A stretch of 64,000 bases of DNA from Candidatus Saccharimonadota bacterium (GTDB lineage Bacteria > Patescibacteriota > Saccharimonadia > Saccharimonadales > SZUA-47), in contig JAYSZA010000043.1 in assembly GCA_043727115.1 (NCBI GenBank), forward strand, positions 975 to 64,974. Reading direction: 5' to 3'. The notes under the pieces were generated by a model. That model saw nothing but the letters and a program-made list of their open reading frames with translations. It was not told the DNA's origin and did not search any database. Each line of letters starts with the position of its first letter. Positions within the stretch are counted from its first letter, which is position 1. Below, piece after piece: positions 2,028 through 17,568 of the stretch. The position numbers and the translations under genes were made by a program.

Positions 2028-2034
2028 AACAACA

Positions 2035-2060
2035 TTATATAGGTCAGATGACCTATATAA
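2035..2060. promoter_or_regulatory. perfect inverted repeat TTATATAGGTCA-GA-TGACCTATATAA immediately 5' of recF
   Basis: Arms of 12 bp with a 2-bp spacer. It lies 8-33 nt upstream of the recF ATG, in the divergent region shared with the 2356 gene. Candidate operator or hairpin. Confidence 0.4.
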
Positions 2061-2355
2061 TGTAAATATCAAATTACAAATCCAAAATAATAAACAAATT
2101 GTAAAACTTAAATTCTAAACATGGACAACCCTAGTAGCAGAGTGTTGCTCAGCCCCGAGTAAGACTATTGGCTATTTGGGGGGTAGCTGTTTTCTGTGTT
2201 CATGACGCTTAAATAATGTTAACATAGGACATTGCATGGGCATTATTCAACAGGCTATTCTTAATACATATGTGAGAAATTCGTGATACTGTAGTTTTGG
2301 GTAGTAAATACAAAAAAATACAAAGCATACAATAATTGTCAACAGGAGTAAGCCC

Positions 2356-3656: not shown

Positions 3657-4748
3657 TCAACTTTTTACGGGCATAACGACGTGTAGATAGTTGTCGTTGT
3701 CTGGGTCGGTCAGGATACATGGGTCAAGTTTGCCGTTTACATTTATCTGAATTTTTTCACCTTCAAAAGCGCTGAGAGCATCAAGAATATAGCGTGAATT
3801 CATTGTAATTACAGCGTCGCCTGAAATTTCAGCCTCTGCTACGGCGTTGTTTTCCCCGACTTGTGATGCGATTGAGCGTATGCTTACTTCTTTTTTTTCT
3901 TCGCTCATAGTTACGGTTACGCCACCGGCTGCTTCCCGCGCAAAAAGGCTTGAGACTTTGGTTATTTCCTGTAAATCTGTTCGCTTCAAAACGGCGGTAG
4001 TTGCGTAATCTTTAGGTAGAAGTTTGCGGTAGTCAGGATAGTTTCCTTCAATTAGCCTAGTGACCAGTTCGACGGAACCGACACTAAATCTTGCTTGCTG
4101 CTCGTCGTACTGCACACCAACACTGACAGTATCATCACGCATAACTCTCAGGACGTCTTGTAGAGATGAGGCTGGTAGAAGTAGATTGACTTCCTTTTCT
4201 TCAGCCCCAATCACTTTTTCTGCCAAACGGTATGAGTCTGTGGCTACGGCGTATAGTTTGCCGTTAAGTGTGTGTAGGTACAGTCCGGTTAGAACTGGTC
4301 TAGCGTCATCACTTGATGCAGCAAACAAAACTTGTTGCAGTGCAGACTTCAAATCCGCACCAGTCATTTGTAGAGAGTGCCCGTTTTCAATAGTTGGCAT
4401 AACAGGGAAGTCATCGGCTGGTGTTCCGTTGATACTTGAGCTGTGGTGTTCGGTTGTTAACTTTAGTTTACTGTCGACAACTTCAAGTGTTAGTGTTCCT
4501 GAGGGTAGGCTGGAAACATAGTCTTGCATTAGCCTGGCTGGAACAGTAATTGAGCCCTCGGCTTTAATCTTTGCTCCGATTGTCTCGCTTATTGCAACAT
4601 CTAGATTTGTAGCCGCTACAAGAAGCTGGTTATTTTCTGTTTTAAGTAAAACGTTTGAAAGAATTGGTAGTGAACCACGTGAGCTTGCTATACGCGAAAC
4701 TGTTGCGAGTGCCCTGGATAGATTTTCCTGTGTGACGGTCAGTTTCAT
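3657..4748 (-). CDS. dnaN: DNA polymerase III beta subunit (sliding clamp)
   Basis: 363 aa. The N-terminus MKLTVTQENLSRALATVSRIASSRGSLPILSNVLL is typical of DnaN, and the protein has three-domain clamp length. It sits directly downstream of dnaA. Confidence 0.95.
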   Translation of the reverse strand: MKLTVTQENLSRALATVSRIASSRGSLPILSNVLLKTENNQLLVAATNLDVAISETIGAKIKAEGSITVPARLMQDYVSSLPSGTLTLEVVDSKLKLTTEHHSSSINGTPADDFPVMPTIENGHSLQMTGADLKSALQQVLFAASSDDARPVLTGLYLHTLNGKLYAVATDSYRLAEKVIGAEEKEVNLLLPASSLQDVLRVMRDDTVSVGVQYDEQQARFSVGSVELVTRLIEGNYPDYRKLLPKDYATTAVLKRTDLQEITKVSSLFAREAAGGVTVTMSEEKKEVSIRSIASQVGENNAVAEAEISGDAVITMNSRYILDALSAFEGEKIQINVNGKLDPCILTDPDNDNYLHVVMPVKS

Positions 4749-5180: not shown

Positions 5181-6557
5181 TTATGCATACAATCTCCCCC
5201 TTAATTCAACTAGTTGCTGGCGTACAGCTGGGTCTAGGTGAGAAGACTTTTCGATTTTATCAACAGAATGAATGGCGGTCGTGTGGTCTTTGCGGCCTAA
5301 TTCATTAGCAATTTTCGGAAAGCTCATGTGTAGCTCGCTCCTTAGCATATACATAGCCATTTGACGCGGGTAGACGATGTCTTTGTCGCGCTTAGGGCTT
5401 AGCAAATCCTCCATTGAGATAGAGAAGTAGCGAGCTACTCGCTCAACAATATGCTTGGGTGAAATATGCTTAGGTCTAGACTTTGCACTTCCAAGCAGTG
5501 TTTGCGCAACCTGTAAGTCTGGTTCTAGTCCACGCATCTCACAAAAGGCTAGAAGCTGGTTTAATACGCCCTCTAGTTCACGGATGTTAGTAGTCACCAA
5601 ATTAGCTAGGAATTCAGTGACATCGGCCGGTAGCTGTAAGTCGTTGGCGTGAGCTTTGGTTTGGATAATTGCACAGCGAGTTTCAAAATCCGGAATCTGC
5701 ATGTCTATAGACATTCCCCAGGCAAAGCGACTTCGTAGTCTTTCCTCAAGAGTCGGAATATCTTTTGGTGGTTTATCACTGCTGATAATAATCTGCTTAT
5801 TAGCCTGATGCAGAGCATTGAAAGTATGGAAGAACTCTTCCTGGGTTTTTTCTTTTCCAGCTATAAACTGAATGTCGTCGATGATTAGAACGTCCGCGCT
5901 ACGGTAATGGTCGGCAAAGTCAGTGTTTTTTTTGTAGCGAATCGCATCTAGAAACTCCTGTACGAACTGCTCGGTAGATATATAGAGAACATGTGACTGT
6001 GGATTGCGCTTCAGAATTTCATTACCAACAGCCTGCATCAAGTGAGTTTTTCCGATTCCAACTCCACCATACAAAAACAAAGGGTTATATTTCTCACCTG
6101 GTTTACCCGCAATGGCTTGGCAAGCTGCGTAGGCAAGCTCGTTTCCGGCACCGACTATAAAGTTATCAAATGTGTAGCGGTCATTAATACCTCTGCGGTA
6201 TTTGTGCGTCAGGCTGGTATTTCTGTTGTTTTGAGTTGATGGTCTTGGCGCGCTAGAGTTGTGTAAAACCATTGTGTCGTTTGATGTTGATTTGCTGGAA
6301 GGGGCTTTGGCATTATAGATTTTGAATTCAATTTGTTCTGGCCGTATGCCGTTCTTGTCTAGTACATCTAGAAGTAGGTCCTGGTATTTTTTCTCTAATT
6401 GCTGCTTTATGAATATATTTGGAACGCCCACTATGACACTGGAGCTATCAGCTTGCAGAAGTTGAGTGGCCTTAAACCAGGTCACAAAGTTACCCCGTGA
6501 AATAGTTAGTTCTATCTCACCTAAGACTGCCTGCCATAATCTCGCGGTATCCTGCAC
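5181..6557 (-). CDS. dnaA: chromosomal replication initiator protein DnaA
   Basis: 458 aa. Walker A GGVGIGKTHLMQAVGN lies in an AAA+ core, and a C-terminal DnaA-box-binding helix-turn-helix region is present (VARYFSISMEDLLSPKRDKDIVYPRQMAMYM). Confidence 0.95.
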   Translation of the reverse strand: MQDTARLWQAVLGEIELTISRGNFVTWFKATQLLQADSSSVIVGVPNIFIKQQLEKKYQDLLLDVLDKNGIRPEQIEFKIYNAKAPSSKSTSNDTMVLHNSSAPRPSTQNNRNTSLTHKYRRGINDRYTFDNFIVGAGNELAYAACQAIAGKPGEKYNPLFLYGGVGIGKTHLMQAVGNEILKRNPQSHVLYISTEQFVQEFLDAIRYKKNTDFADHYRSADVLIIDDIQFIAGKEKTQEEFFHTFNALHQANKQIIISSDKPPKDIPTLEERLRSRFAWGMSIDMQIPDFETRCAIIQTKAHANDLQLPADVTEFLANLVTTNIRELEGVLNQLLAFCEMRGLEPDLQVAQTLLGSAKSRPKHISPKHIVERVARYFSISMEDLLSPKRDKDIVYPRQMAMYMLRSELHMSFPKIANELGRKDHTTAIHSVDKIEKSSHLDPAVRQQLVELRGRLYA

Positions 6558-6679
6558 TAGCTTTTCCCCTCGGCTTACACTTTTTTGTATCCACCTAATA
6601 GTACGCTAAAGTAGTACGACTTTTCCACAGCTACTTTCACAACATTTAATGTGAGTAATCACACACCCTTGGGGCGGGG

Positions 6680-6742
6680 TTATCCACAGAAACGATTTAC
6701 ATCTGTTAATAATGTGGATAAAGGCTGTGGATGAGTGGATAA
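6680..6742. promoter_or_regulatory. cluster of four DnaA boxes (oriC, upstream half)
   Basis: TTATCCACA at 6680-6688. TGTGGATAA at 6713-6721. TGTGGATGA at 6726-6734. AGTGGATAA at 6734-6742. An AT-rich stretch follows at 6745-6800. Located between dnaA and rpmH. Confidence 0.8.
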
Positions 6743-6811
6743 GCAATACTCTAAATTTTGCAATTTGTAAAATTTCTATGCAAGATGCTGATTATGGTTG
6801 GGTGTTACTCC

Positions 6812-6840
6812 TTGCGCAAAAAGGGCGTCGATGGTAGAAT
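6812..6840 (+). promoter_or_regulatory. sigma-70-like promoter for rpmH-rnpA (TTGCGC-17 bp-TAGAAT)
   Basis: -35 TTGCGC at 6812-6817, a 17-bp spacer, and -10 TAGAAT at 6835-6840. The rpmH ATG lies only 8 nt downstream with no Shine-Dalgarno, so the predicted transcript is leaderless. Confidence 0.45.
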
Positions 6841-6848
6841 AGAGCGAT

Positions 6849-6986
6849 ATGCCAAAACGAACTTTCCAACCAAAGAAGCGCAAGCGATCGCGCGTTCACG
6901 GCTTTTTTAAGCGAATGTCTACACGAACAGGAAGAATTGTTCTGAAAAGACGACGACTTAAGGGTCGAAAGATGCTTTCTCGTTAA
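6849..6986 (+). CDS. rpmH: 50S ribosomal protein L34
   Basis: Manual translation gives [45 protein letters not shown] (45 aa), a canonical L34. It is not in the ORF track because it is shorter than 60 aa. Confidence 0.9.
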
Positions 6987-7041
6987 TAGTTTTTCGGTTC
7001 AACAAACAACAACCATTGCATAAGCTGAGCGGAGCCACCAA

Positions 7042-7377
7042 GTGATAGCACGCAAAAACCGATTTCACGGACACAACAGTGTGTCGCGAGTGCGCGGTAA
7101 ATCTGTGCACACTCAAAACTTCAAAGTTTTCTATATGCATAACCCAAAACGCCAAGATTATAGAATGGCGGTTGTTGTCAGTAAAAAAACAGCTAAATCT
7201 GCCGTAGTTAGAAACCGCATCAGACGTCGTCTTTATGAGCTGGTCAGAACCCAGGCCATGCTAGCCGGACAACCGTTTGACGTTGTTTTTGTTGTGCAGA
7301 ATCCAGACCTTGCAAATATGCCCGCCCAAGACCTAGCACTTCAAGTCATGAATGCGACTCAAAAAATCGTCGAGTAG
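7042..7377 (+). CDS. rnpA: ribonuclease P protein component
   Basis: 111 aa, basic. The sequence (VVSKKTAKSAVVRNRIRRRL) matches the RnpA core. GTG start with GGAG 7 nt upstream. Located downstream of rpmH. Confidence 0.85.
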   Translation: MIARKNRFHGHNSVSRVRGKSVHTQNFKVFYMHNPKRQDYRMAVVVSKKTAKSAVVRNRIRRRLYELVRTQAMLAGQPFDVVFVVQNPDLANMPAQDLALQVMNATQKIVE

Positions 7378-7449
7378 TAGTCCAATTTACACCAAATAAC
7401 ACTCCTCAGTCGTGGTATAGTGGAATAAACGGAGTAACCAAGAGAATCT

Positions 7450-8427
7450 ATGTTCACCACCTTTATCGTGCAACCAATTTTTAACGTGCTAACCCTGATT
7501 TATGCGCTTCTACCTGGCCATAACTTTGGAGTTGCAATCATTTTGTTCACAATAGTGACTAGATTTGCTCTCTATCCGATGCTTAAAAAGCAGCTGCGCC
7601 ACACCAAGGCAATGCGTGAATTACAGCCAGAGATAAAGAAGATAAAGGCCAAAACAAAAGGCAACAAGCAACAAGAATCACTAATGATGATGGAGCTTTA
7701 TAAAGAGCGAGAAATCAAACCACTCGCTTATATGGGGCTGATGATTTTCCAGATTGTGCTGTTTTTTGCTCTTTTCTCCGGGCTTAACAGAGTGGTAAAC
7801 GACTCAAAAGCAATTTATGACTTTTCATACCCTGTAATTCAGAACATAAGTTTTATGCAGGACCTAAATGCTGATATCTCCAAATTTGATAATACGCTTT
7901 TTGGTGGTATAGACCTTGGGCGTGCAGCAATAGCAAACGAATCTGGGTTTTATTTCCCGGCATTCATGCTAGTACTTGGCTCTGCGCTGATACAGTTCTT
8001 CCAGATCAAACAAACGATGCCGTCAAGCAAAGACGCACGTAAACTGAAGGAAATACTAAAGGACGCAAACACTGGCAAACAGGCCGACAGTTCAGAAATC
8101 AGCGCTGCTATGAGCCGTAATATGGCCTATATTCTACCGTTCTTTATTTTCGTTGTAACCATCGGTTTCCCAGCAGCACTCTCGCTTTACTGGTTTGTTG
8201 GCGGCTTGGTCGCATATTTGCAACAGTCCTATCTACTAAAGCAAGACGAATATTCCATGACTAACGGCACCGCAACAGCTACTGTTGTGTCAAAGAAGCC
8301 ACTGCGCAAAAAAGACTCCGGCGTTAAAGTTACTGTCCTGAGCGAAGAAAAAGCAGAAACTAAACCAAAAGCCAAAAAATCTAAATCTAAATCCTCTCAA
8401 AAAAATCGTAATAAACGAAAGAGGTAA
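7450..8427 (+). CDS. yidC: membrane protein insertase YidC/Oxa1 family
   Basis: 325 aa. A short Gram-positive-type YidC with five TM segments and a Lys-rich C-tail, in the conserved rnpA-yidC-jag context. Confidence 0.9.
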   Translation: MFTTFIVQPIFNVLTLIYALLPGHNFGVAIILFTIVTRFALYPMLKKQLRHTKAMRELQPEIKKIKAKTKGNKQQESLMMMELYKEREIKPLAYMGLMIFQIVLFFALFSGLNRVVNDSKAIYDFSYPVIQNISFMQDLNADISKFDNTLFGGIDLGRAAIANESGFYFPAFMLVLGSALIQFFQIKQTMPSSKDARKLKEILKDANTGKQADSSEISAAMSRNMAYILPFFIFVVTIGFPAALSLYWFVGGLVAYLQQSYLLKQDEYSMTNGTATATVVSKKPLRKKDSGVKVTVLSEEKAETKPKAKKSKSKSSQKNRNKRKR

Positions 8428-8432
8428 TTGTC

Positions 8433-8894
8433 GTGGAAGAATCAATTCAGTTCGCTAAAAAATATTTAGAGGATATGTTGTCGTTTTTTGGTTTAAATGT
8501 AGATGTCTACGCCACCAGTGAAGACGGTGAGGTAATTGAGCTGAACGTACCAAGTACACACCTGAACGGATTCTTGATAGGTAATCATGGGGACAACATG
8601 CGTAGCATGCAGTATTTGATTAGCATGGCGCTTAAAAGCAAAGAATTTGAATTTAACAGAGTAAATGTGGACATCGCAGACTACAAAAAACAACGCGCCC
8701 ATCGCCTAGAAGAGCGTGCAGTTGAGTGGCTGGAGCAAGTGAAGACATCTGGTAAGGAGATGCACTTAGAGCCGATGAACGGCGCAGACAGACGCACTAT
8801 CCACAAGCTAGCGGGCGAACATGGTATTGAAACAGAATCTGAAGGCGAAGGTCTAGAGCGCCACATCGTACTGAAACCAGCACCAGCAGAGTAG
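8433..8894 (+). CDS. jag: Jag/KhpB-like RNA-binding protein (KH + R3H)
   Basis: 153 aa. The C-terminus carries an R3H-like signature (GADRRTIHKLAGEHGIETESEGEG). It sits in the conserved position after yidC. GTG start with RBS GAAAGAGG. Confidence 0.8.
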   Translation: MEESIQFAKKYLEDMLSFFGLNVDVYATSEDGEVIELNVPSTHLNGFLIGNHGDNMRSMQYLISMALKSKEFEFNRVNVDIADYKKQRAHRLEERAVEWLEQVKTSGKEMHLEPMNGADRRTIHKLAGEHGIETESEGEGLERHIVLKPAPAE

Positions 8895-8936
8895 ACTTTT
8901 CTTTACTTGTAAATATATCGGGCGTAAAGTAATTCT

Positions 8937-11906
8937 ATGAGACGTGAGGTTTGGGTGCTGATAGTCGTATCTATTGTTTATGTTTTTTTTGGTTCCCTCA
9001 CGAAGGCCAGCGCACAGGCTTCTGACCCCCATTTGTGGGATGGCAATATTACCCTTGAACAGTCCAAAACAATTACACCTACCCAAGTGCAAAACAGGCA
9101 CGACTGTCGTTACGTAAACGCTAAAAGTATAAGCTTGAAAACCCCATTTACATATATGTTTGCCACGGTTCCGGTGATGCTGAACCCAACCACCACCACC
9201 ATAGGCAATAGATGCATTATTGATAACCAAAACGGATATTTTACCAACGAGTTTCTACAAGGTAGTGGGGATAGCTATCTGGCTTCGTATTACTTTGGTG
9301 ATAGTACAGACAAAATGTATGATTTAGCTCCAATGCTATCAGGCAATTATTGGATTGAGCCAGCCTCAAATAGCAACACTGTATTGTTTTTGGTCAAAAA
9401 TGCTTTTACGGACAAAACCTATTCAGTTAATACGCAGAACGATATTGGTGATGCCCGGCCCGGCATTAGGAGCAATAAGCTAACCTGGGAATTTGGCAAC
9501 CTACAACCAGAAACCTGGAGAGACAAGGACGGCGTAGTTTTCAAAATCGACGAGCACGTGTTTTCACCGAACGGGCAATTCATGGCCATTCATTACAAAT
9601 CAACAATCGCGAAAGTGAATTTGCGCAACATGGAAATGATGCCTGTCGCCTACGACACCAGCTTAAAAGGCAGCGAACTTGCGATAAGCAATGACGGCCG
9701 TTATGTTGCACAGCTCAAGTCTAGTAAATTGTTTGTTACAGATACATATGGGTGTGAAACAGTCTACAATTCAGACTCCTGGGATATAATTTCTGGACAG
9801 TTGTCCTATCCGGGCTGCAAACAGAGTCAAGACATTATCCCCGGGCTTGTTAGTGGAGGATTAATTAGCTCTGGAAAATTCTACAAAAGACCGTACTTTT
9901 CACCAGATAGTAAAAAGCTGAATATTGCTGTCGGCACTAGGCGGACGGACATCAATACCGGTGGTTCAATGATTCCCTTGGCCTTCAACTGGCAAGAGGT
10001 CGTATTGACAGCCAATAATCACGTCAGTAATGTGCAGGGATATTTAGCAATGGGCGATAGTTTTTCGAGCGGCGAGGGGGACTTGCAGGGCGGAACTTGG
10101 TATGAACCAGGGACCGACGAACAGGGAAACAAAGACACTTTTGAAGGACGCAATCTGTGCCATTTGTCGCGTCGGAGTTACCCGTATCTTATCGCAAAAG
10201 AACTGGGGTATTTGTCGGGTGATGCATCCGAACCCACGACGCCTCTGGATAATGACTTGTTCCACTCAGTAGCGTGTAGTGGGGCAGTTATACATAATAT
10301 CGTAGGTACTACTAACGAAGATAACTTTGACCATGAAAACTCATCAAACCAGTACAGGAATGATTTTCTCGGTAGTTTAGTTCGGTGGCAGCCCGGACGG
10401 ATAAAACAACTTGATGCACTAGATTCGTTCGTATTTGGAGGCTATTCAGTCTCAGAGCCTAAACCAGAAGTCATTACACTAGGAATAGGCGGTAATGATG
10501 GAGGATTTGGCGATATCGTTAAATCATGCACCCTTCCTGGAACATGTAAGTACGCAGTCGAGCAATCGATTGACCTGAGCAACCTAGCCATTGGGCTTAT
10601 GAAAATAAAACCAAAATTAGTAGACACATACAAAAAAATAAAGCAAACTAGCCCAGAATCAAGAATATACGTCCACGGCTATCCAATATTTGTATCTGAT
10701 AGAGTAGGTGATTTGAGTGATAGTTTAGACGGTGGAACTTGTAGGGCAAATGTACGCTTGGACTTTCAAGAACGCCGACTTGTAGTAGAGGGCATTAAGT
10801 ATATGAATGAAATAGTACGAGCGGCGGCAAGTGAAGCAGGGGTATTCTACGTGGATATAGAGGATATACTTGAGGGGACAAATTTATGTAGTGGGCATAA
10901 TCCAGGGGACATTACTGTTAACGGTGTGACTGCCGGAAACGATATCGATTTTAGTCTGTGTCTCTTCAGGACGGGCTGTATTGGTAGTGAAAGCTTCCAT
11001 CCGAATCAATTAGCGCACAGATTATATAAGGAAAGAGTATTATCCTACACCGGTAATCTATCCGAACCAATGCCGCCGGTCGTATTAACAAGTATCCCGG
11101 CTCCGGATGATTTCTTTGGATCAACTGCAAGTAGTCAAGCGGGAGTGCACAATAACGGGGGCAATTTCACCATTGTCGTGCCCGAGCCCAAGCCGTTTTT
11201 GAGTGGCAGTGAACAAGGCAGTAAGATTTTACAAGAAGGCTTATTGCCGGGCTCTATATTGCGTGTTGAACTACAATCAACCCCAATAACTATCGCGGAT
11301 TTCACAGTTCCAGCGGACGGTGTAGTTAACCAACCTATAGAATTGCAATCTGATTCTGAGCCTGGAGCGCACGAACTTCATATATTTGGGGTGGACAATT
11401 TCGGCACAGCTTTTGATTATTACGAGCCAATCCTAATCGCTTTTAGTGAAACCGATTTCGATGGCGACGGAATAACAGATGATGTTGATAGCTGCATCAC
11501 TGTATTCGATAGCTTTGTAGACGTGGACCAAGACGGAATTGATGATGTCTGTGACGGTGAAATAGTCATCACACCTCCAGAACCAGAAGTGATAATCGTT
11601 CCTCCGGAGGAAATAATTGTTGAAGACCCAATCACCGAAGAAGAAACTTCACCAGAAACACCGACTCCACAAGTACTGGACCGTGAAAAAGGTGAGCCAA
11701 ACCCAGAAACTGTAGCAGGTGATGAAGAAACGGTTCCGCAAGTACTCGGTGCCTCAACTAGCTCCGATAATACACCATTAGAATCCCAGTCAGTGCTTGG
11801 AGCTGCTGCAGACCTAGCTAGCACAGGCAAGCCCGCGATAGTAACCTTTTTCGTGGGTATAACATTCGTTATTATAGGAATCGTGTTATATAAACACCAA
11901 AAATAA
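8937..11906 (+). CDS. large cell-surface protein: signal peptide + PD40-like beta-propeller repeats + SGNH/GDSL hydrolase domain + Asp-rich Ca-binding (TSP3-like) repeats + Pro/Glu stalk + LAxTG sorting signal
   Basis: 989 aa. N-terminal signal peptide MRREVWVLIVVSIVYVFFGSLTKASAQA. Repeated SPNGQF/SNDGRY/SPDSKK propeller-like motifs. A GDSFSSGEG block sits near 10049-10078, with GGNDGG and FHPN.LAH blocks downstream (SGNH). DFDGDGITDDVDSCITVFDSFVDVDQDGIDDVCDG follows. The C-terminus LASTG (11814-11828) plus hydrophobic helix plus KHQK resembles a sortase (class E LAxTG) substrate. Confidence 0.75.
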   Translation: MRREVWVLIVVSIVYVFFGSLTKASAQASDPHLWDGNITLEQSKTITPTQVQNRHDCRYVNAKSISLKTPFTYMFATVPVMLNPTTTTIGNRCIIDNQNGYFTNEFLQGSGDSYLASYYFGDSTDKMYDLAPMLSGNYWIEPASNSNTVLFLVKNAFTDKTYSVNTQNDIGDARPGIRSNKLTWEFGNLQPETWRDKDGVVFKIDEHVFSPNGQFMAIHYKSTIAKVNLRNMEMMPVAYDTSLKGSELAISNDGRYVAQLKSSKLFVTDTYGCETVYNSDSWDIISGQLSYPGCKQSQDIIPGLVSGGLISSGKFYKRPYFSPDSKKLNIAVGTRRTDINTGGSMIPLAFNWQEVVLTANNHVSNVQGYLAMGDSFSSGEGDLQGGTWYEPGTDEQGNKDTFEGRNLCHLSRRSYPYLIAKELGYLSGDASEPTTPLDNDLFHSVACSGAVIHNIVGTTNEDNFDHENSSNQYRNDFLGSLVRWQPGRIKQLDALDSFVFGGYSVSEPKPEVITLGIGGNDGGFGDIVKSCTLPGTCKYAVEQSIDLSNLAIGLMKIKPKLVDTYKKIKQTSPESRIYVHGYPIFVSDRVGDLSDSLDGGTCRANVRLDFQERRLVVEGIKYMNEIVRAAASEAGVFYVDIEDILEGTNLCSGHNPGDITVNGVTAGNDIDFSLCLFRTGCIGSESFHPNQLAHRLYKERVLSYTGNLSEPMPPVVLTSIPAPDDFFGSTASSQAGVHNNGGNFTIVVPEPKPFLSGSEQGSKILQEGLLPGSILRVELQSTPITIADFTVPADGVVNQPIELQSDSEPGAHELHIFGVDNFGTAFDYYEPILIAFSETDFDGDGITDDVDSCITVFDSFVDVDQDGIDDVCDGEIVITPPEPEVIIVPPEEIIVEDPITEEETSPETPTPQVLDREKGEPNPETVAGDEETVPQVLGASTSSDNTPLESQSVLGAAADLASTGKPAIVTFFVGITFVIIGIVLYKHQK

Positions 11907-11934
11907 AACCAGTGTCATATAAAGTTCATTCAAC

Positions 11935-12450
11935 CTATAGCTCCGTATAAGTGCTTGTCAGTTTGTCTATATCAGCCTTAGAGCTCGCTCGGGTAACTAC
12001 GGGGTAGCAAGAGTAGATGACTTTTTTTGAGTTGCTAAAAATAAAACCAGTTCCTTCAAAGTTGCCACACGACTTATTATTAATTAGTCTTTCGGGGAGT
12101 TTGGTAGTTAGTGTTTGGCTTAATTCGTAAGGCTTGTCCCGAGGGCTTTCTAGGTAAACGTAACAAGAAGGGGTTTTAGTAAATTTTTCTTCAAGGTCAC
12201 CACAACTAACTCCTATGAATAATTCTTCGCCGGTCTCTGCTTCTACGTCTTTTTCTAGTTTTTCAAAGTCAGCAAGTAACTGCTTCATGTCTGATACATT
12301 TTTTTGGTCTAGGTATTTGTTATATCCGTAAGCTCCACTGATTGCTAGAAGAAGGAAGCCAATCAAAAGAACCACTCCGTACCTACCTGCAAACGACTTT
12401 ATACCAGAGTTTCTAGCTTTAGATTGCTTACTAGTAGCTTTCTTTATCAT
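11935..12450 (-). CDS. hypothetical membrane-anchored protein
   Basis: The ORF track extends to 12531, but that extension runs through a palindrome. The probable start is MIKKATSKQ at 12450. One N-terminal TM segment (VVLLIGFLLLAISGAYGY) is followed by an extracytoplasmic domain with two Cys. Confidence 0.5.
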   Translation of the reverse strand: MIKKATSKQSKARNSGIKSFAGRYGVVLLIGFLLLAISGAYGYNKYLDQKNVSDMKQLLADFEKLEKDVEAETGEELFIGVSCGDLEEKFTKTPSCYVYLESPRDKPYELSQTLTTKLPERLINNKSCGNFEGTGFIFSNSKKVIYSCYPVVTRASSKADIDKLTSTYTEL

Positions 12451-12490
12451 AACCACAATTGTAGCCTGTTTTATTAATACCCCCAAATCA

Positions 12491-12519
12491 TACTGTACAA
12501 GGACAGTCCTTGTACAGTA
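12491..12519. repeat. 29-nt perfect palindrome (REP-like), left flank of transposase
   Basis: Arms of 14 bp around a central A. It ends 10 nt before the transposase ATG. Confidence 0.85.
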
Positions 12520-12529
12520 CACTAAGGTC

Positions 12530-13213
12530 ATGCCTAGCAGGAACGCCGTTAAAAAATTTGAACCAGATTCTATGTACCATGTATATAATCGTGGTGTAGA
12601 TAAACGGATAATATTTGTAGACGAGCGTGACTATAGTGTTTTCCTGAGTTTTTTGAAGTACGCTCTGTTGTCTGATGATGAGCTTAAAAACTACCAAGTT
12701 GTTGATGCGGGAATTATTTCACAAGCGGAAAGATTTAATCTAAGACGAGAAGGACTGCACGGAGTTGTAGAACTGGTCAGTTTTTGCTTAATGCCGAATC
12801 ACTTTCACTTGCTACTGTACCAATATGAAATTGACGGAATTACGCGTCTAATGAGATCTGTCGCAACTGGGTATTCAGGATATTTTAACAAACGGCACAA
12901 AAGGGTAGGATCATTGTTTCAAGGTCGGTATAAGGCTAGTCCAATAAGTTCGCAAGGTTATTGGGACCACATTAGCCGCTATATTCATCTCAACCCCCTA
13001 GATATTGGTGAAGATTATGAGACTTACTCGTACTCGAGCTACAGAAATTACACTGGGAATTTCGAAGCTGAGTGGCTAAGACCGAATCTTGTGCTTGACG
13101 GGTTTGAGTCGGCTGCTGCATATCAAAAGTTCGTGTCGGAGTATGTTCCTTACAGGAAAGAGCTAAAGGACACCAAGGATCTGCTTGCCAATAGCAGAGA
13201 ATTGGAAGAATAA
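12530..13213 (+). CDS. IS200/IS605-family Y1 transposase-like protein (REP-associated tyrosine transposase-like)
   Basis: 227 aa. Family pattern YHVYNRGVDKRIIF...CLMPNHFHLLL (HUH motif)...GSLFQGRYKAS...RYIHLNP. It is longer than a minimal IS200 TnpA, with a C-terminal extension. Confidence 0.75.
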   Translation: MPSRNAVKKFEPDSMYHVYNRGVDKRIIFVDERDYSVFLSFLKYALLSDDELKNYQVVDAGIISQAERFNLRREGLHGVVELVSFCLMPNHFHLLLYQYEIDGITRLMRSVATGYSGYFNKRHKRVGSLFQGRYKASPISSQGYWDHISRYIHLNPLDIGEDYETYSYSSYRNYTGNFEAEWLRPNLVLDGFESAAAYQKFVSEYVPYRKELKDTKDLLANSRELEE

Positions 13214-13254
13214 TATCTTACTGCACAAGGACTGTCCTTGTACAGTAAGATATT
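13214..13254. repeat. 41-nt near-perfect palindrome (REP-like), right flank of transposase
   Basis: The 29-nt core matches the left copy (one mismatch) in inverted orientation, with arms extended to 20 bp. It begins immediately after the transposase stop. Confidence 0.85.
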
Positions 13255-13302
13255 ACCGTTATTTTTCTTTGTTGTTTGGAACCAACATAAACAGAGTAAA
13301 GT

Positions 13303-14583
13303 CTATCCGAGGATTTTGTTGTATATTTCTAGGGTTTGGGCGGCCATTCGGCGCCAAGAAAATCTTTTGGCGTTTTCGTAGCCTTTTTCTATAAGTTTTT
13401 TTCGCAGAGGCTCGTTGGATATGACCTCGTCGATTTTTGCTGCCATTTCCTGAATATCAAGCGGGTTAAAATAAACCGCTGCATCACCATGAACTTCAGG
13501 CAGGCAAGTTGCATCACTGCTGACTACCGGACAGCCGTGAACCATAGCCTCTAGACCCGGTAAACCAAAGCCTTCACTGAGCGATGGGAATACATAGGCT
13601 CGGGCATTTTGGTAATACCACTTCAGTTCTTCGTCAGGAATAAAACCAGTGAAAATTATATCTTCAAAACAAGGCTGTTTATGGCTCGACTCACCCAAAA
13701 TCCTGCTGTCTTCAGGAGACTTTTTCAGTGACGAGATAAATGACTTTTCCGACGAAGAGGTATCTTTAGATACATCTGAGGAGGAAAGGCTTTTAGATTG
13801 TTCTGAAAAATCTTCTGAGGCGGTAGGTATTTTAGGTGTGTTGCGCCTTGCCCATCGCTCTAATGATTTGCTGTGATGTTCTCTTTTGCCGATTAAAACT
13901 AGCTTTAAGTCCGCGTGTTGTTCTTTCAGTAAACAAAATGCACTGATTAGTCGCTCCAAGTTTTTGTGTGGGAATGCGCTGCCGGTATACATGATGAACT
14001 TTTCTGGTGGGTTTTCCGGTGTGTGGGCTTTGCCGGGAAGTGGCGGTTCACTAGATTCCAAGGTAACTGTTGTTTTGCGGTTGGTGAATAAATGGTATTT
14101 GTTAACCGCATCTGCAACATATTGAGTAGGTACTAGGATGTGTTTTGCACGGCGGTGCGCTGACCATAGCAAGAATCGGTATCCTCGCATGCGCAGGGCA
14201 TGTAACCAGCCCGGAAGACGCCCGGCACGGACAAATTTGAGCATGGTTAGGTCGTGTGTGAATGTCGTCTGCTTCTTGAAGTAGAAAATTGGCTGTTGAG
14301 GTGTAAGTGTAAAATGAACCAAATCCGCCCTTAATCGGTACAGTTGCCAGGCATATAAGACCTGGTTAATCGGATTGAAACTAAAGTTACCAAACCTTGT
14401 ATGTTTAACCACGAAGTTTTTGTTGGTAGGCATCCAATCATCTTTTGGTTCTACTAGAATTGTGTAGTGGTGGTCATTATCAATCTCTTGCAAATGCTCC
14501 AGTAATCTTGCGACAGGACGTCCCGTGCTGGCTCTACGTATACGTGCATCTATGACTATGTGTTTCTTTGGAGGCTTTGACAT
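13303..14583 (-). CDS. glycosyltransferase family 1/GT4-like with Ser-rich low-complexity insertion
   Basis: 426 aa. The C-terminal domain carries FTGFIPDEELKWYYQNARAYVFPSLSEGFGLPGLEAMVHGCPVV (EX7E-type GT-B motif). An unusual ~50-aa insertion, SEDFSEQSKSLSSSDVSKDTSSSEKSFISSLKKSPEDS, lies between the two Rossmann halves. Confidence 0.75.
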   Translation of the reverse strand: MSKPPKKHIVIDARIRRASTGRPVARLLEHLQEIDNDHHYTILVEPKDDWMPTNKNFVVKHTRFGNFSFNPINQVLYAWQLYRLRADLVHFTLTPQQPIFYFKKQTTFTHDLTMLKFVRAGRLPGWLHALRMRGYRFLLWSAHRRAKHILVPTQYVADAVNKYHLFTNRKTTVTLESSEPPLPGKAHTPENPPEKFIMYTGSAFPHKNLERLISAFCLLKEQHADLKLVLIGKREHHSKSLERWARRNTPKIPTASEDFSEQSKSLSSSDVSKDTSSSEKSFISSLKKSPEDSRILGESSHKQPCFEDIIFTGFIPDEELKWYYQNARAYVFPSLSEGFGLPGLEAMVHGCPVVSSDATCLPEVHGDAAVYFNPLDIQEMAAKIDEVISNEPLRKKLIEKGYENAKRFSWRRMAAQTLEIYNKILG

Positions 14584-14617
14584 GAGCTCATTATACCTCT
14601 TAATTTTTTGTCAGTAT

Positions 14618-14643
14618 CTACCCTATATGTGACAATAGGGTAG
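14618..14643 (+). promoter_or_regulatory. inverted repeat CTACCCTAT-N8-ATAGGGTAG abutting the start codon of the 14644 gene
   Basis: Arms of 9 bp. The downstream arm ends one nt before the ATG and contains the only SD-like AGGG. This could be an operator or a translational-control hairpin. Confidence 0.4.
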
Positions 14644-15018
14644 ATGAATAATTTTCAAAACGGTGTGACTTCTAGTGACTTAGTACCGCAGTCCTTCAAA
14701 AACTCTAATCAAAACGTCAGTTTTCAGAAAACCTATAGCGTATCTGGCACACAATCAAACAGCGCAAATCAACTACTCTATTCTGCTAGCTCACCAGGAG
14801 TTTTAACCGTAGATGATGGCTCTAACTCCCAAGTATTGGGTTTGTCTAATACTGTGGCAAACACAAGCTCATCGAGTATCACTCAGAATTCAAATAACTA
14901 TATTCCAGTAGCCCTGGTTTTTTTGGTTATCGCAGCTACTTTAAGCAACTATTTCTTTAAACGCTACAAAAGCATTCCAGTAGCAGCCGAACAAGAGCAA
15001 TCTGATGACGAAGAGTAG
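14644..15018 (+). CDS. small Ser/Asn/Thr-rich C-terminally anchored membrane protein
   Basis: 124 aa. About 95 aa of low-complexity S/T/N/Q-rich sequence precede a single TM segment (IPVALVFLVIAATLSNYFF) and a KRYK...acidic tail. The gene overlaps the downstream Wzy_C gene by 14 nt. Confidence 0.5.
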   Translation: MNNFQNGVTSSDLVPQSFKNSNQNVSFQKTYSVSGTQSNSANQLLYSASSPGVLTVDDGSNSQVLGLSNTVANTSSSSITQNSNNYIPVALVFLVIAATLSNYFFKRYKSIPVAAEQEQSDDEE

Positions 15019-16348
15019 CACAGACCGAATTTCTCGTCTTCTGTTCGTTCTGTCGATTATCCTTGTTGTCTATATGCCACTTCACGTCTTCATAGCGCAG
15101 TCCGCCAGCTTGCTAACTGGGGGCATAGAGGTGTGGAAGGCGGCAAAGGATTTATTAATCGTCATTCTTGTTCCAGTTTTATTATTTCTGAGCTATAGAA
15201 GGGGACTTCTCCACAACAAAACCTTTCGTTGGCTGATGATTTTGGGCGGACTATACACGTTACTGCACGGTTTATTCGTTATATTCGACGGAAACGACGA
15301 TACGTATTCAGCAATTGTTGGGAGCGTCTACAATACAAGGCTACTCGGCTATCTACTGCTTGGCTATATTGTAGGTTCAGCAAAAGAAGGGGAAAAGTAC
15401 CTGCGCTATTTACTCACAGCAACGGTGATAATCGCAAGCGCGGTAGCGTTGTTTGGTGTGTTGCAGTACTTTTTGCCATCAGATTTCCTGACGCATGTCG
15501 GGTATAGCCTGGACAGGGGGGTGAAACCACTCTTTTTCATCGACGATAAGCCCGATTTGCCTAGAGTAATGAGCACAATCAAAGACCCTAACTCGCTGGG
15601 TGCATACTTAATTTTGCCGATGTTATTGACTGGCTACGCTTTATTTAAAAAATCTGTGAATGAAGCAATATTTGCACGTCCATTCCGCAGGGAAGTGCTA
15701 GGAGTAATGTTAGCTTTACAGTTTGGTGCACTGACACTAACATTTTCACGCGGTGCGTTTCTAGGACTTATATTCAGTACACTTACTTTACTTTGTATAG
15801 CGAAAGGGAAGCAAATACTGCTGATAGCAAAAAGATTTTGGTATATTTTGCTCGGCACTACTCTGATTTTTATTAGTTTGTTCGTAGTATTACAAGATAC
15901 ATATTTGGTCCAAAATGTAATTTTTCATGCTGATGAATCTACGGTTCTTGAAGACCCAAATGAGCTGAGAGTTACTTTCTTCCAGGAAACCTTAGACAAG
16001 GTTATAGACGAGCCTCTAGGTTCCGGTCCAGGGACTGCAGGGCTGGTCGCCATAAATAACCCAAAAGGCGGCGTACTGACAGAGAATTACTACCTCCAGA
16101 TAGCTTACGAGGTTGGCTGGGCAGGTTTTCTGTTTTTTGCCACAATTCTAGGTGTTCTAGCAGTAAATTTGTACAAAATGCGCAAAAATGCCGTAGCGGT
16201 GGTCCTGCTAAGTAGCCTTGTTGGTTATTTGTTCTACAGCCTACTCATTCATCTATGGTCAAACGAAGCCCTAGCCCTGCAATGGTGGCTACTTTGCGGA
16301 GCTGCTATTGGCTATTTTGCGATGCGACCGAATGACAAAAAACTCTAG
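15005..16348 (+). CDS. O-antigen ligase/polymerase family (Wzy_C) membrane protein
   Basis: 447 aa with at least 10 TM segments. It carries the signature ENYYLQIAYEVGWAGFLFF (the H/N-x2-L-x4-E-x-G-x2-G pattern) and FSRGAFLGLIFSTL, typical of WaaL/Wzy/PglL-type enzymes. Confidence 0.7.
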   Translation: MTKSSTDRISRLLFVLSIILVVYMPLHVFIAQSASLLTGGIEVWKAAKDLLIVILVPVLLFLSYRRGLLHNKTFRWLMILGGLYTLLHGLFVIFDGNDDTYSAIVGSVYNTRLLGYLLLGYIVGSAKEGEKYLRYLLTATVIIASAVALFGVLQYFLPSDFLTHVGYSLDRGVKPLFFIDDKPDLPRVMSTIKDPNSLGAYLILPMLLTGYALFKKSVNEAIFARPFRREVLGVMLALQFGALTLTFSRGAFLGLIFSTLTLLCIAKGKQILLIAKRFWYILLGTTLIFISLFVVLQDTYLVQNVIFHADESTVLEDPNELRVTFFQETLDKVIDEPLGSGPGTAGLVAINNPKGGVLTENYYLQIAYEVGWAGFLFFATILGVLAVNLYKMRKNAVAVVLLSSLVGYLFYSLLIHLWSNEALALQWWLLCGAAIGYFAMRPNDKKL

Positions 16349-16355
16349 ACTAGAA

Positions 16356-16787
16356 TCATCTCTCTTCTACTTCTGGATCTTTCTCGCCCCAAATAAAATA
16401 CTTGGTCCAAACAAAGTTCCAGAATAGTGCCAGAGCTGAACTGACAACCAATGCGATAGTGTAATCAAAATGCAGAACTCTGACACAAAAGCTGACCAGT
16501 AGAGCCCCGCCTATAATCGCCACCCAGCTAGTTGCGTGAAATTCTACTAAGTAATTTGAGAGTGTTTTATTCTGTTTTCGCGATTTATTTTTGTAGGTCC
16601 AGTTGTGATGCATGGCAAAATTATGAAACAGCGCAACCTCGGAAGCCAGTAGCTGAGCAATGAATATGTGTATACCCATCTGTTTGTAAAACAGACTTAA
16701 AAGCGCGTAGTTAATGATGAAACCCGCGGTTCCAACTATGCAAAATCTAATAAAATCTATCGATACTAACTTTTTAGCTAATTTCAT
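16356..16787 (-). CDS. GtrA-like small membrane protein (polyprenyl-phosphate sugar flippase family)
   Basis: 143 aa, 4 TM. FIRFCIVGTAGFIINYALLSLF...HNFAMHHNWTYK matches the GtrA family pattern. Confidence 0.75.
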   Translation of the reverse strand: MKLAKKLVSIDFIRFCIVGTAGFIINYALLSLFYKQMGIHIFIAQLLASEVALFHNFAMHHNWTYKNKSRKQNKTLSNYLVEFHATSWVAIIGGALLVSFCVRVLHFDYTIALVVSSALALFWNFVWTKYFIWGEKDPEVEER

Positions 16788-16845
16788 ACTTATCTTTAAT
16801 TCTAGCTCATGCTAGCATTAAGCAAGAACAAAAGGGAAAAATCAC

Positions 16846-17568
16846 GTGGCCAAAACCAAGAAATTATCTATCGTCATACCTTGTTATAACGAAAAACCGA
16901 CTATAGAAAAACTATTCAAAGAAGTCCAAGACGTGAATCTGGGGACCACAAGCAAAGAAATCATTATTGTCGACGATGGCTCCAAAGACGGAACTCGAGA
17001 TATTCTAAAAAAATTAAAAAAGGCCAACCCAGAAATCAAAGTATTGTTGCAAGAAAAAAATCAGGGTAAAGGTGCCGCTCTGAAACGAGGATTTCTAGAA
17101 TCTACCGGCGATGTTTTGATTGTTCAAGATGCTGATTTAGAGTATGACCCACAAGAATACATCAGGCTGCTCTACCCAATTGAGCGTGGTCATGCAGATG
17201 TAGTCTACGGCTCTAGATTTGTCGGGGGCGAACCGCATAGGATTATTTACTATCGCAACCAAGTCGCTAACAAGTTTCTAACAACACTATCCAATATATT
17301 CACTGGGCTAAACCTGACAGACATGGAAACATGCTACAAAATGATGAACGGAAATTTGGCGCGTGAGCTTGCTGCTGATTTACAGTCTGACCGATTCGGG
17401 TTTGAGCCGGAAATCACAGCACGTATAGCCAAAAAAAATGTGAGAGTCTACGAAATTGGGATTAGTTATTATGGCCGTAGCAAAGAAGAGGGCAAGAAAA
17501 TTGGTTACAAAGACGGCCTGAAAGCAATCTGGGAAATTATCCGATTTAACGTGTTTGTGGGGAAGTAA
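16846..17568 (+). CDS. GT2 glycosyltransferase, DPM1/GtrB-like polyprenyl-phosphate sugar synthase
   Basis: 240 aa. LSIVIPCYNE...IIIVDDGSKDGT...VQDADLEYDP (DxD) are the GT-A motifs. It has no C-terminal TM segment, which is DPM1-like. Confidence 0.8.
   Translation: MAKTKKLSIVIPCYNEKPTIEKLFKEVQDVNLGTTSKEIIIVDDGSKDGTRDILKKLKKANPEIKVLLQEKNQGKGAALKRGFLESTGDVLIVQDADLEYDPQEYIRLLYPIERGHADVVYGSRFVGGEPHRIIYYRNQVANKFLTTLSNIFTGLNLTDMETCYKMMNGNLARELAADLQSDRFGFEPEITARIAKKNVRVYEIGISYYGRSKEEGKKIGYKDGLKAIWEIIRFNVFVGK

Follow-up and report, generated by a model that had tools for sequence, protein, structure and literature searches.

The subject of this analysis is a compact unit at positions 12,491 to 13,254 of a 64,000-nucleotide (nt) stretch of DNA from a Candidatus Saccharimonadota bacterium (assembly GCA_043727115.1, contig JAYSZA010000043.1, positions 975 to 64,974 of the forward strand), referred to below as the window. 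The unit comprises a gene for a predicted single-stranded DNA (ssDNA) nuclease-ligase of the HUH/Y1 type and two matching palindromes, one on each side of the gene. The open reading frame (ORF), as read from the sequence and the ORF list, lies on the forward strand and encodes a protein of 227 amino acids (aa) with the motif YHVYNRG at residues 16-22. The motif PNHFHLLL carries the HUH residues H91-F92-H93 (codons CAC TTT CAC) at the start of strand beta3, and RYIHLNP carries Y151 on alphaD, the last helix of the core. H91 and H93 are predicted to form the metal-binding site, and Y151 is the predicted catalytic tyrosine. The coordinates of all features are collected in Table 1.

The upstream palindrome, TACTGTACAAGGAC-A-GTCCTTGTACAGTA, has perfect 14-nt arms (12491-12504 and 12506-12519) around the centre A12505 and forms a hairpin with a 13-bp stem on either strand. 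It is separated from the ATG codon by the 10-nt spacer CACTAAGGTC, which includes an AAGG Shine-Dalgarno-like tract. As the palindrome ends only 10 nt before the ATG, the hairpin must be located in the 5' untranslated region (UTR) or overlap the promoter. The downstream palindrome begins inside the TAA stop codon (13211-13213) and has arms of 21 nt (13212-13232 and 13234-13254) with one mismatch, C13224, and the centre T13233. Except for the mismatch, its core of 29 nt (13219-13247) matches the upstream one in reverse complement, and the two palindromes together make up terminal inverted repeats of 33 nt (12487-12519 versus 13219-13251) that are 94% complementary. A search with the 23-mer TGTACAAGGACWGTCCTTGTACA, allowing up to three mismatches, found the two bracketing sites only in 64 kb and none in 100 shuffled sequences, and the 12-nt half-site TACTGTACAAGG is present in the window as the four arms and nowhere else. 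The folding energies of the single strands are -13.3 kcal/mol for the upstream and -16.5 to -18.0 kcal/mol for the downstream palindrome (z = -4.9 to -11.2), and both are among the three strongest perfect palindromes of the window. Neither passes a terminator scan around the unit, with no T-run abutting the stem; a promoter consensus scan of the same region gave weak matches and no convincing sigma-70 promoter, and the window yielded no match in Rfam at gathering thresholds and no tRNA in a tRNA scan.

As was found by profile searches, the protein passes the gathering threshold of the Pfam family Y1_Tnp (PF01797; 35.3 bits with a cut-off of 23, residues 80-153). No match at E<=1 was obtained with NCBIfam transpos_IS200 or with Pfam Bac_DnaA_C, HTH_23 and HTH_28, the C-terminal helix-turn-helix (HTH) being undetected, and PADLOC and PHROGs gave no match; nothing suggests a protein of a defence system or of a phage. 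Across 52 aligned homologues (51-82% identity), residues H17, Y19, N20, R21, G22, N90, H91, H93, Q98, Y118, N120, G127, R150, Y151, H153, L154, N155, S170 and W182 are invariant, and the N-terminal MPSRN is near-invariant. Since the MPSRN...DS N-terminus is conserved, the true start is the ATG at 12530, which gives 227 aa, rather than Met15. The public call for an identical protein (P0001) is 213 aa long, starts at Met15 and drops MPSRN (window 12530-12571). The protein database contains thousands of relatives, the best of them from Candidatus Saccharibacteria; a protein library at 50% identity holds 230 representatives at E<=1e-30 and 20,896 at E<=1e-3.

The AlphaFold (AF2) model has a mean predicted local distance difference test (pLDDT) score of 86 and a predicted template modelling (pTM) score of 0.83, and shows the beta-alpha-beta-beta-alpha-beta-alpha topology of the HUH/Y1 core, followed by a C-terminal extension of four helices that could be assigned to no known type. 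Between helix A and strand 2 the model contains a low-confidence insertion of about 30 aa (about aa 48-78; pLDDT 59-78 for residues 51-80), which is absent from an alignment with proteobacterial homologues of subclass 2.1 (see below). The best Foldseek match in the PDB is 4er8_A, the E. coli REP (repetitive extragenic palindromic)-associated transposase with a REP hairpin (E 4.8e-6, TM 0.67 by target length), with 12% identity only in the structural alignment; the next matches are 2vjv, 2xm3, 2a6m and 2f4f, the TnpA proteins of IS608, ISDra2 and IS200. A profile search against PDB sequences gave weak scores and a correct alignment, in which mpnHfHlll aligns with MPDHVHLLL of ISDra2 TnpA and Y151 with its Y132, the residue mutated to F in PDB 2XO6. 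A single-sequence PDB search returned just one spurious weak match, 2czl.

The same arrangement is found around homologous genes; L-numbers below denote DNA stretches or loci from related genomes and metagenome contigs. In three homologous loci found by an exact protein look-up (82, 78 and 71% identity), the core TACTGTACAAGG-N5-CCTTGTACAGTA is located both before and after the gene. When metagenome contigs were scanned with the family alignment, 80 further loci (32-68% identity) were obtained; in most of those with sufficiently long flanks, a hairpin scan revealed one palindrome on either side. Its sequence differs by lineage, as exemplified by AATAGTACAAGGATWATCCTTGTACTATT, ACTTCAGGTTCSGAACCTGAAGT, CCTGCAGGGCCAGGCCCTGCAGG and ATCGAAGGGTWACCCTTCGAT. 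In a test that is independent of the picking of hairpins, 71 of 82 homologous loci from Saccharibacteria and other Patescibacteria (32-82% identity) showed an exact match of at least 12 nt between the two 220-nt flanks; the controls gave 0.45 of 82 with shuffled downstream flanks and 2% with flanks paired across loci. When 27 lineage representatives were aligned on their centres, all 13 stem positions varied on both sides and 91.5% of the cells were paired, compared with 27-43% for slid partners, a figure that is partly circular because the sequences had been chosen as hairpins. Most lineages have in common the apex theme ...AGG-xx-N-xx-CCT..., and the distance from the end of the core to the ATG is 12 nt in L001, L002, L016 and L017. 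That the gene is bracketed by cognate palindromes is no coincidence of this one locus.

The position of the gene was compared between window 5181-16348 and loci L001, L002, L003, L016, L017, L028, L048 and L049. In the Saccharibacteria loci with 47-82% identity, the Y1 gene always lies in an origin-proximal dnaA-yidC-jag-GDSL/GT4/Wzy_C cluster, within a few kb of dnaA, yidC and jag. The order and orientation of the GDSL, GT4, Wzy_C and jag genes are shuffled between genomes (Table 1), and the breakpoints coincide with the palindrome-bracketed cassette. The earlier remark that such a unit often seeds rearrangements gains support from these comparisons, the cassette staying near dnaA, yidC and jag while its immediate neighbours differ. 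Nearly every protein cluster at 90% identity is confined to one or few contigs, the 64-kb window holds one copy of the gene, and homologues are found in 16 of 72,556 plasmid records, all with less than 34% identity, and in one phage record. The stable neighbourhood, the one-contig clusters and the near-absence from plasmids and phages argue for, rather than prove, a single-copy and vertically inherited gene, and the synteny is in line with a domesticated rather than a mobile one.

Copies of the palindrome also occur away from the gene in related genomes. The scan of 185,579 species genomes (596 Gb) with the pattern CTGTACAAGG-N(0-10)-CCTTGTACAG yielded 43 DNA stretches. About 37 of them belong to Saccharibacteria or other Patescibacteria and all of these have the N5 spacing; the remaining approximately six are from unrelated phyla outside the candidate phyla radiation (CPR), have other spacings and correspond to about the number calculated for chance. 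Single genomes carry three to six exact copies on different contigs (six in JAUIBF01, six in JAUIKH01 and five in JAXHNE01), and a looser pattern applied within 8-kb stretches adds near-copies, bringing the total to 66 distinct copies. According to tblastn, most copies are solo, away from any Y1 gene. Most of them stand between convergent or tandem genes, in short gaps where they are 0-50 nt away from ORF ends. Doublets are occasional, such as those in L002 (5736/5790) and, with inverted centres, in L006 (5047/5107). The copies of one genome share the central 5 nt, which are largely specific to that genome, and often about 8 nt of an outer arm as well (AACACCTTA...TAAGGTGTT in JAUIBF01); this suggests that they were copied within it. 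Before the core, the bases of the 66 copies follow (C/T)(T)A and, further out, are C-rich and G-depleted on both strands.

Some further observations concern these copies. In L007, palindromes at 1705-1729 (centre TCGGA) and 2606-2630 (centre AACGT) flank a prepilin peptidase gene (1761-2591, reverse strand); therefore, one genome can hold more than one variant of the centre. Partial tandem duplications of one arm (11-15 nt) stand beside solo copies in L005 (6480-6520), L036 (3652-3700) and L037 (3785-3830) and look like slippage at hairpins. In L020, from the metagenome-assembled genome JAXHNE01, two palindromes about 200 nt apart are found on each side of the Y1 gene (6050-6320 and 6985-7230), with the 19-nt sequence ATACAATCCACCCGAAAAC directly repeated (at about 6065 and again at about 6166) and a long C/A-rich tract before the gene-proximal copy. 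The comparison of an empty with a filled site, using the third palindrome of L001 (8304) and window 16300-17000, revealed no insertion boundary, the regions not being orthologous. A LexA-box operator was considered as well, since the ends TACTGT...ACAGTA resemble half-sites of the E. coli LexA box; it was rejected, as the half-site spacing is 21 nt and not 8, and the copies are found mainly at gene ends or in coding sequence, not in promoters.

Eleven copies of the palindrome lie in frame inside ten real genes, where they encode TVQGxxLY[SR] or LYK[DEV]xPCT[VE], depending on the frame (Table 1). Five of the eleven are in genes of DNA repair or replication, which is suggestive only. The Y1 gene carries such copies as well. 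Of about 62 more distant loci (32-47% identity, other Patescibacteria), at least 23 have the lineage's own palindrome in frame within it, at two recurrent sites. One corresponds to about aa 50-62 and falls in the loop that joins helix A to strand 2; the other directly follows YIH[LR]NP (about aa 150-168). The 30-aa insertion of the window protein falls in the first of these loops. The flanking and in-gene copies of a locus are alike, and those of different lineages are unlike each other; we read this as concerted evolution.

The TnpAY1 proteins have been split into class 1, of the IS200 type (Y---Q), and class 2, of the REP-associated tyrosine transposase (RAYT) type (Y---NP) (Quentin, Siguier, Chandler, Fichant 2018, PMC6006769). 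According to Table 1 of that work, subclass 2.1 is characterised by NHVH or NH[YF]H, W[EQ] or FQ, YIELNP or Y[IV]HLNP, an SS tail, a median length of 238 aa and the entry 'REP: no'; automatic and manual searches gave no REP-like sequences for it, and it was equated with the TIRYTs of Di Nocera et al. (PMC6006769). By its motifs, the window protein matches subclass 2.1, also called RAYT Group 1 or TIRYT: it has NHFH, FQ (SLFQGRY), YIHLNP and an SS tail (YSYSSY), with 227 aa against the median of 238, a match judged by inspection of that table rather than a formal assignment. The 2.1-type 'transposases' of R. rubrum and P. aeruginosa plasmids align with it over the full length and represent another flavour (NH[IV]H, LW[QE], YIELNP, WSSY). 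TIRtrons are RAYT-like genes with terminal inverted repeats, many of which carry GGGGWSAS, some being self-complementary and some forming moderately abundant families (Di Nocera et al. 2013, PMC3733652). The window gene resembles them in its self-complementary terminal inverted repeats and the moderate repeat family. The 16-mers flanking Group 1 genes have about 12 copies per replicon, more than those of housekeeping genes and far fewer than those of Groups 2 and 3 (Bertels et al. 2017, PMC5581495), and the flanking words of the Patescibacteria unit are likewise of low abundance. The differences from TIRYTs and subclass 2.1 include the lack of a Pfam-detected C-terminal HTH or Bac_DnaA_C in the window protein, its insertion of about 30 aa before strand 2 and the absence of GGGGWSAS, for which no match was found on either strand at 12000-13800. 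Moreover, a preference for large genomes was reported for tnpAY1 genes, whereas the genomes of Saccharibacteria and other Patescibacteria have about 1 Mb.

The TnpAREP protein of E. coli cuts single-stranded REPs at CT and joins them again, with GTAG as the guide; tnpAREP is a single-copy gene without evidence of mobility (Corneloup et al., PMC8266576). The E. coli REPtron (TnpAREP/RAYT YafM; subclass 2.2, Group 2; 4ER8) is the best fold match of the window protein and, like the unit described here, has the Y---NP motif, a single-copy gene flanked by cognate hairpins and further copies dispersed over intergenic regions. The E. coli REPs are imperfect, with a bulge and a 5' GTAG foot, and number about 600 (PMC8266576), whereas here the palindromes are perfect, have no foot and amount to a handful. 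The REPs of Group 3 are short perfect palindromes (PMC8266576); unlike the palindromes of the window, those of Group 3 or subclass 2.5 REPtrons (S. maltophilia, Marinomonas, Pseudomonas) keep the cleavage-guiding 5' GTAG and reach high copy numbers, and the subclass 2.5 proteins are of about 151 aa with DH[LF]H, WQ and YI[VI]ANP (PMC6006769). REPs inside the gene were described as unique to subclass 2.4 of Cyanobacteria and Bacteroidetes (PMC6006769), with which L053, L057, L067, L082, L109 and at least 18 more loci share this trait. The window gene, in contrast, has no internal copy, the motifs of 2.4 are NH[IFV]H, WQ and YIxNNP, and the insertions of 2.4 are located between HUH and Y, while those of Patescibacteria precede strand 2 or follow just after the Y motif. 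With the TnpA proteins of the IS200/IS605 family (IS608, ISDra2, IS200) the window protein shares the HUH/Y1 fold, the aligned catalytic residues and the hairpins beside the gene. The IS200/IS605 proteins (subclass 1.1) differ by Y[IV]ENQ and DH[VI]H, a core-only length of about 150 aa and an often adjacent tnpB. A literature search found, in the collection of papers that it covered, none linking RAYT or IS200-type genes with Saccharibacteria, Patescibacteria or CPR, and a paper on Patescibacteria genetics (PMC10633639) does not mention them. The arrangement is known from other bacteria, and for Saccharibacteria, as far as found, it is apparently undescribed.

It is probable that the locus is a unit of the REPtron/TIRtron type, in which a single-copy, vertically inherited ('domesticated') gene for a class-2 RAYT-like HUH/Y1 ssDNA nuclease-ligase is framed by two cognate hairpin palindromes. 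The identity and the anatomy of the unit are well supported. With E. coli TnpAREP and the transposases of IS200/IS605 as models for the mechanism, we infer that the protein could bind, cleave and copy the hairpins; their mobility and any regulatory role of theirs are likewise inferred. Wherever the DNA becomes single-stranded, as it does at the replication fork, each palindrome would fold into a hairpin, which the Y1 protein would recognise. H91 and H93 would hold a divalent metal, Y151 would cut beside the hairpin with formation of a 5'-phosphotyrosyl link, and the protein would then rejoin the strand. Over evolutionary time, the hairpin would be copied to new sites and the copies within a genome would be kept alike, while the gene itself would not move as an insertion sequence. 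Such an activity would explain the bracketing copies, the intergenic and in-frame solo copies in related genomes and the likeness of the copies within a genome. The bracketing hairpins, one of which stands 10 nt before the ATG while the other overlaps the stop codon, probably also affect the expression or stability of the gene's own mRNA.

Several findings weigh against this interpretation. The protein scores 35.9 bits with the NCBIfam equivalog of REP-associated tyrosine transposases (NF047646), below the cut-off of 80, while other Patescibacteria relatives score 43 and proteobacterial homologues of the 2.1 type 75-77 bits. No further copies of the palindrome were found in the 64-kb window, inside the Y1 gene included, so that dispersal is seen in relatives and the window has the two bracketing copies only. 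The copy numbers of 3-10 are far under those of classical REPs. A 5' GT[AG]G foot is absent from the palindromes of the window, whose 5' flanks on both strands are CCAAATCA, CCTTAGTG, GGAAGAAT and ATAACGGT, and no conserved foot is present over the 66 pooled copies, GTAG in some of them being only part of the 3' end of the stem. Near-symmetric palindromes without a foot give no evident choice of strand or cleavage site. Subclass 2.1 was reported to be without REP-like sequences, and here hairpin palindromes are the rule. The orientation of the palindromes is not conserved either. The centres are inverted in the window, L001, L003, L016 and others and direct in L017, L018, L020, L043 and many others, with about half of the loci matching better in each way. 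To these points the partial circularity of the pairing figure may be added.

The earlier note had taken the locus for the signature arrangement of a RAYT-REP unit with palindromes in opposite orientation; this is correct in outline, with some corrections. Its description of the 227-aa HUH protein with YHVxNRG and RYIHLNP agrees with the Pfam match and with the invariance of H91, H93 and Y151, and its two palindromes, 14+1+14 nt before the gene and the same core with one mismatch and a central T after it, are as measured. The opposite orientation is true for the window, where it depends on one central base, and fails as a family rule; as a defining feature it is ruled out by the mixture of direct and inverted cases. 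The RAYT-like class, the fold of 4ER8 and the bracketing in most loci agree with the signature, and the protein is not a canonical RAYT, given the score below the cut-off, the missing foot and the low copy number. Further copies of the palindrome exist in related Saccharibacteria genomes, the HUH and tyrosine residues are retained, and the Y---NP motif places the protein outside the IS200 class, with no match to the IS200 profile and one below the cut-off to NF047646; none of the outcomes that the note had named as refuting its reading has therefore come about.

The possibility that the palindromes are the subterminal hairpins of an autonomous IS200/IS605-type insertion sequence, a cassette of 760 bp that excises and inserts as ssDNA, draws on the tight bracketing of the gene, with one palindrome 10 nt before the ATG and the other overlapping the stop codon, on the fold shared with the IS608 and ISDra2 proteins and on the variable immediate neighbours of the cassette. 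It is nevertheless very improbable. The tyrosine motif is Y---NP and not Y---Q, the HUH motif is NHFH, the protein of 227 aa has a C-terminal extension where about 150 aa would be usual, and neither a match to the NCBIfam IS200 profile nor a tnpB partner is present. An element of this kind is also at odds with a single copy in the window, with clusters at 90% identity that nearly all occupy one or few contigs, with homologues near-absent from plasmids and phages and with a gene that stays in one origin-proximal cluster at 47-82% identity. The same symmetric palindrome stands at both ends, whereas the ends of IS200/IS605 elements differ, and solo palindromes are dispersed without the gene. The class-2 motifs together with the synteny largely refute an IS200-type insertion sequence.

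An alternative that we regard as unlikely, though the better founded, assigns to the palindromes a mainly regulatory or structural role in cis, as an operator for autoregulation, a hairpin of the 5' UTR or of the 3' end of the mRNA, or a terminator or insulator; the Y1 protein would bind them sequence-specifically, as hairpin or duplex, without mobilising them, and the solo copies would be selected terminators or stabilisers. The constant, very short distance of the upstream copy from the ATG in Saccharibacteria, the overlap of the downstream copy with the stop codon and the placement of solo copies 0-50 nt from ORF ends, where REPs affect transcript ends (PMC8266576), would fit it, and perfect two-fold symmetry would suit a dimeric binder of duplex DNA. 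Neither palindrome passes the terminator scan, however, a T-run being absent; a terminator or operator is not expected in coding sequence, where in-frame copies occur, those in the Y1 gene of other lineages included; and the invariant HUH and Tyr residues argue for maintained catalysis, as judged from the alignment. The genome-specific centre, with all copies in a genome matching, calls for a process of copying or homogenising. A regulatory function is compatible with the REPtron/TIRtron-type interpretation as a second role. Ordinary homologous or replication-slippage recombination between palindromes of 29-45 bp could likewise have shuffled the cassette, the Y1 protein being uninvolved and the palindromes hitch-hiking. 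The coincidence of rearrangement breakpoints with palindromes and the partial arm duplications at L005, L036 and L037, typical of hairpin slippage, speak for it. This explanation is extremely unlikely, as it accounts neither for the matching copies that flank the gene and lie inside it, at the same two positions, in lineages with wholly different palindromes, nor for the invariant catalytic residues.

RAYT/REP is the best-known case of a transposase domesticated by bacteria, and work on it has been confined almost entirely to Proteobacteria whose genomes are large. The same logic is now seen in Saccharibacteria and other Patescibacteria, the genomes of which have about 1 Mb and have shed most dispensable genes. 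The retention there of a syntenic Y1 gene that is catalytically intact, as judged by its residues, argues for a benefit to the host. The presence of hairpin partners contradicts the published statement that the largest subclass of class 2 (2.1 / Group 1) is without REP-like partners. A system of one gene and few copies of a 29-nt hairpin that is perfectly symmetric and has no guide tetranucleotide could make it easier to dissect recognition and the choice of the cleavage site, and the dated, lineage-specific replacements of palindromes, in-gene copies among them, are a natural record of copying.

A wider and more tentative reading, possible and at present rather doubtful, is that these proteins form an undescribed, Patescibacteria-wide clade of domesticated Y1 nucleases with subclass 2.1 motifs. 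An active process may copy their cognate hairpins and keep them homogeneous in these genomes of about 1 Mb, at the flanks, at the two sites in the gene and in genes such as those of UvrD, DinB, UvrC, RNase H, CysRS, AsnB, QueA and PrmC. That each lineage has its own palindrome would then reflect 'hairpin replacement' and not simple insertion, and the fixation beside the origin in Saccharibacteria would point to a host function tied to replication-associated ssDNA, not to selfish spread. The protein of the 2.1 type with hairpins, the two in-gene sites, the in-frame copies in housekeeping genes and the origin-proximal fixation would set the clade apart if they hold in full genomes.

Table 1. Features of the Y1 unit in the window, copies of the palindrome in related loci and immediate neighbours of the Y1 gene
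Feature	Position	Strand	Basis or remark
Upstream palindrome	12491..12519	.	Same core flanks homologues in L001-L003, L016, L017, L047
Spacer with AAGG tract	12520..12529	+	Similar spacing in homologues
Y1 gene, predicted HUH/Y1 ssDNA nuclease-ligase, class-2 TnpAY1 with subclass-2.1-type motifs	12530..13213	+	Profiles, alignment, fold
Low-confidence insertion, about aa 48-78	12671..12763	+	pLDDT, alignment; site of in-frame palindromes in other Patescibacteria
HUH codons H91-F92-H93	12800..12808	+	Invariant in 52 homologues; ISDra2 alignment
Y151 codon	12980..12982	+	Invariant; alignment with ISDra2 Y132
Downstream palindrome	13212..13254	.	Sequence, folding, shared core
Small membrane-protein gene	11935..12450	-	Outside the unit, marks its left boundary; probable start MIKKATSK at 12450
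Spurious 69-aa ORF, ends ...LYKDCPCTV	12488..12697	-	Antisense to the Y1 gene; upstream palindrome read through
Spurious 69-aa ORF, holds ...LHKDCPCTV...	13185..13394	+	Downstream palindrome read through
In-frame copy, UvrD/PcrA	L019 3265-3289		
In-frame copies, DinB	L011 1979-2003; L042 3033-3057		Two genomes, two positions
In-frame copy, UvrC	L037 3788-3812		
In-frame copy, RNase H	L015 2678-2702		
In-frame copy, CysRS	L040 3845-3869		
In-frame copy, AsnB	L034 5483-5507		
In-frame copy, QueA	L024 2245-2269		
In-frame copy, PrmC	L026 745-769		
In-frame copies, GT2	L003 5452-5476; 5648-5672		Twice
Palindromes CCTGCAGGGCCAGGCCCTGCAGG around and within the Y1 gene	L082 3947, 4150, 4456, 4685		Gene 4001-4657
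Palindromes at the Y1 gene	L057 250, 469, 763, 981		Gene 285-941
Palindromes at the Y1 gene	L053 3131, 3335, 3649, 3844		
Palindromes at the Y1 gene	L109 3958, 4186, 4481, 4695		
Palindromes at the Y1 gene	L067 281, 383, 593, 866, 1091		
Immediate neighbours	Window and L001		Small gene / Y1 / GT4
Immediate neighbours	L002 and L003		Wzy_C / Y1
Immediate neighbours	L016		Y1 / Wzy_C
Immediate neighbours	L017		GDSL / Y1 / jag (inverted)
Immediate neighbours	L048		GT4 / Y1 / GDSL

The unit is located, as had been proposed, between the origin region and a polysaccharide locus. To the left of the Y1 gene lie recF, dnaN, dnaA, yidC and jag/khpB, followed by a gene for a 989-aa GDSL-type protein, and to the right lie the GT4 and Wzy_C polysaccharide genes. 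The nearest neighbours in the window are the small membrane-protein gene and the GT4 glycosyltransferase gene, and no tnpB partner is present. Read from 12450, the small gene encodes 171 aa, as does its orthologue in L001, and the first 27 aa of the longer call, up to 12531, contain VYCTRTVLVQY. Because this extension and the two 69-aa ORFs, with their KDCPCTV, all translate the palindrome, they are artefacts of reading through it, in agreement with the earlier suspicion about these ORFs. In practical terms, the palindromes cause spurious ORFs and a mis-called start in annotations, and they mark rearrangement breakpoints near the origin.

Two minor features of the window may be added. The third long perfect palindrome of the window, ACATTATATAGGTCA-NN-TGACCTATATAATGT at 2032-2063, has 15-nt arms and is placed at the 5' end of the recF ORF (981-2072, reverse strand); its sequence is unrelated to the Y1 palindromes, and it may be an operator. 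The GT4 glycosyltransferase encoded at 13303-14583 on the reverse strand has 426 aa, whereas its counterparts in L001 and L002 have 371-373 aa. The additional residues form a low-complexity stretch rich in Ser and Lys (…SKSLSSSDVSKDTSSSEKSFISSLKKSPEDS…), at which tblastn splits the match to L002.

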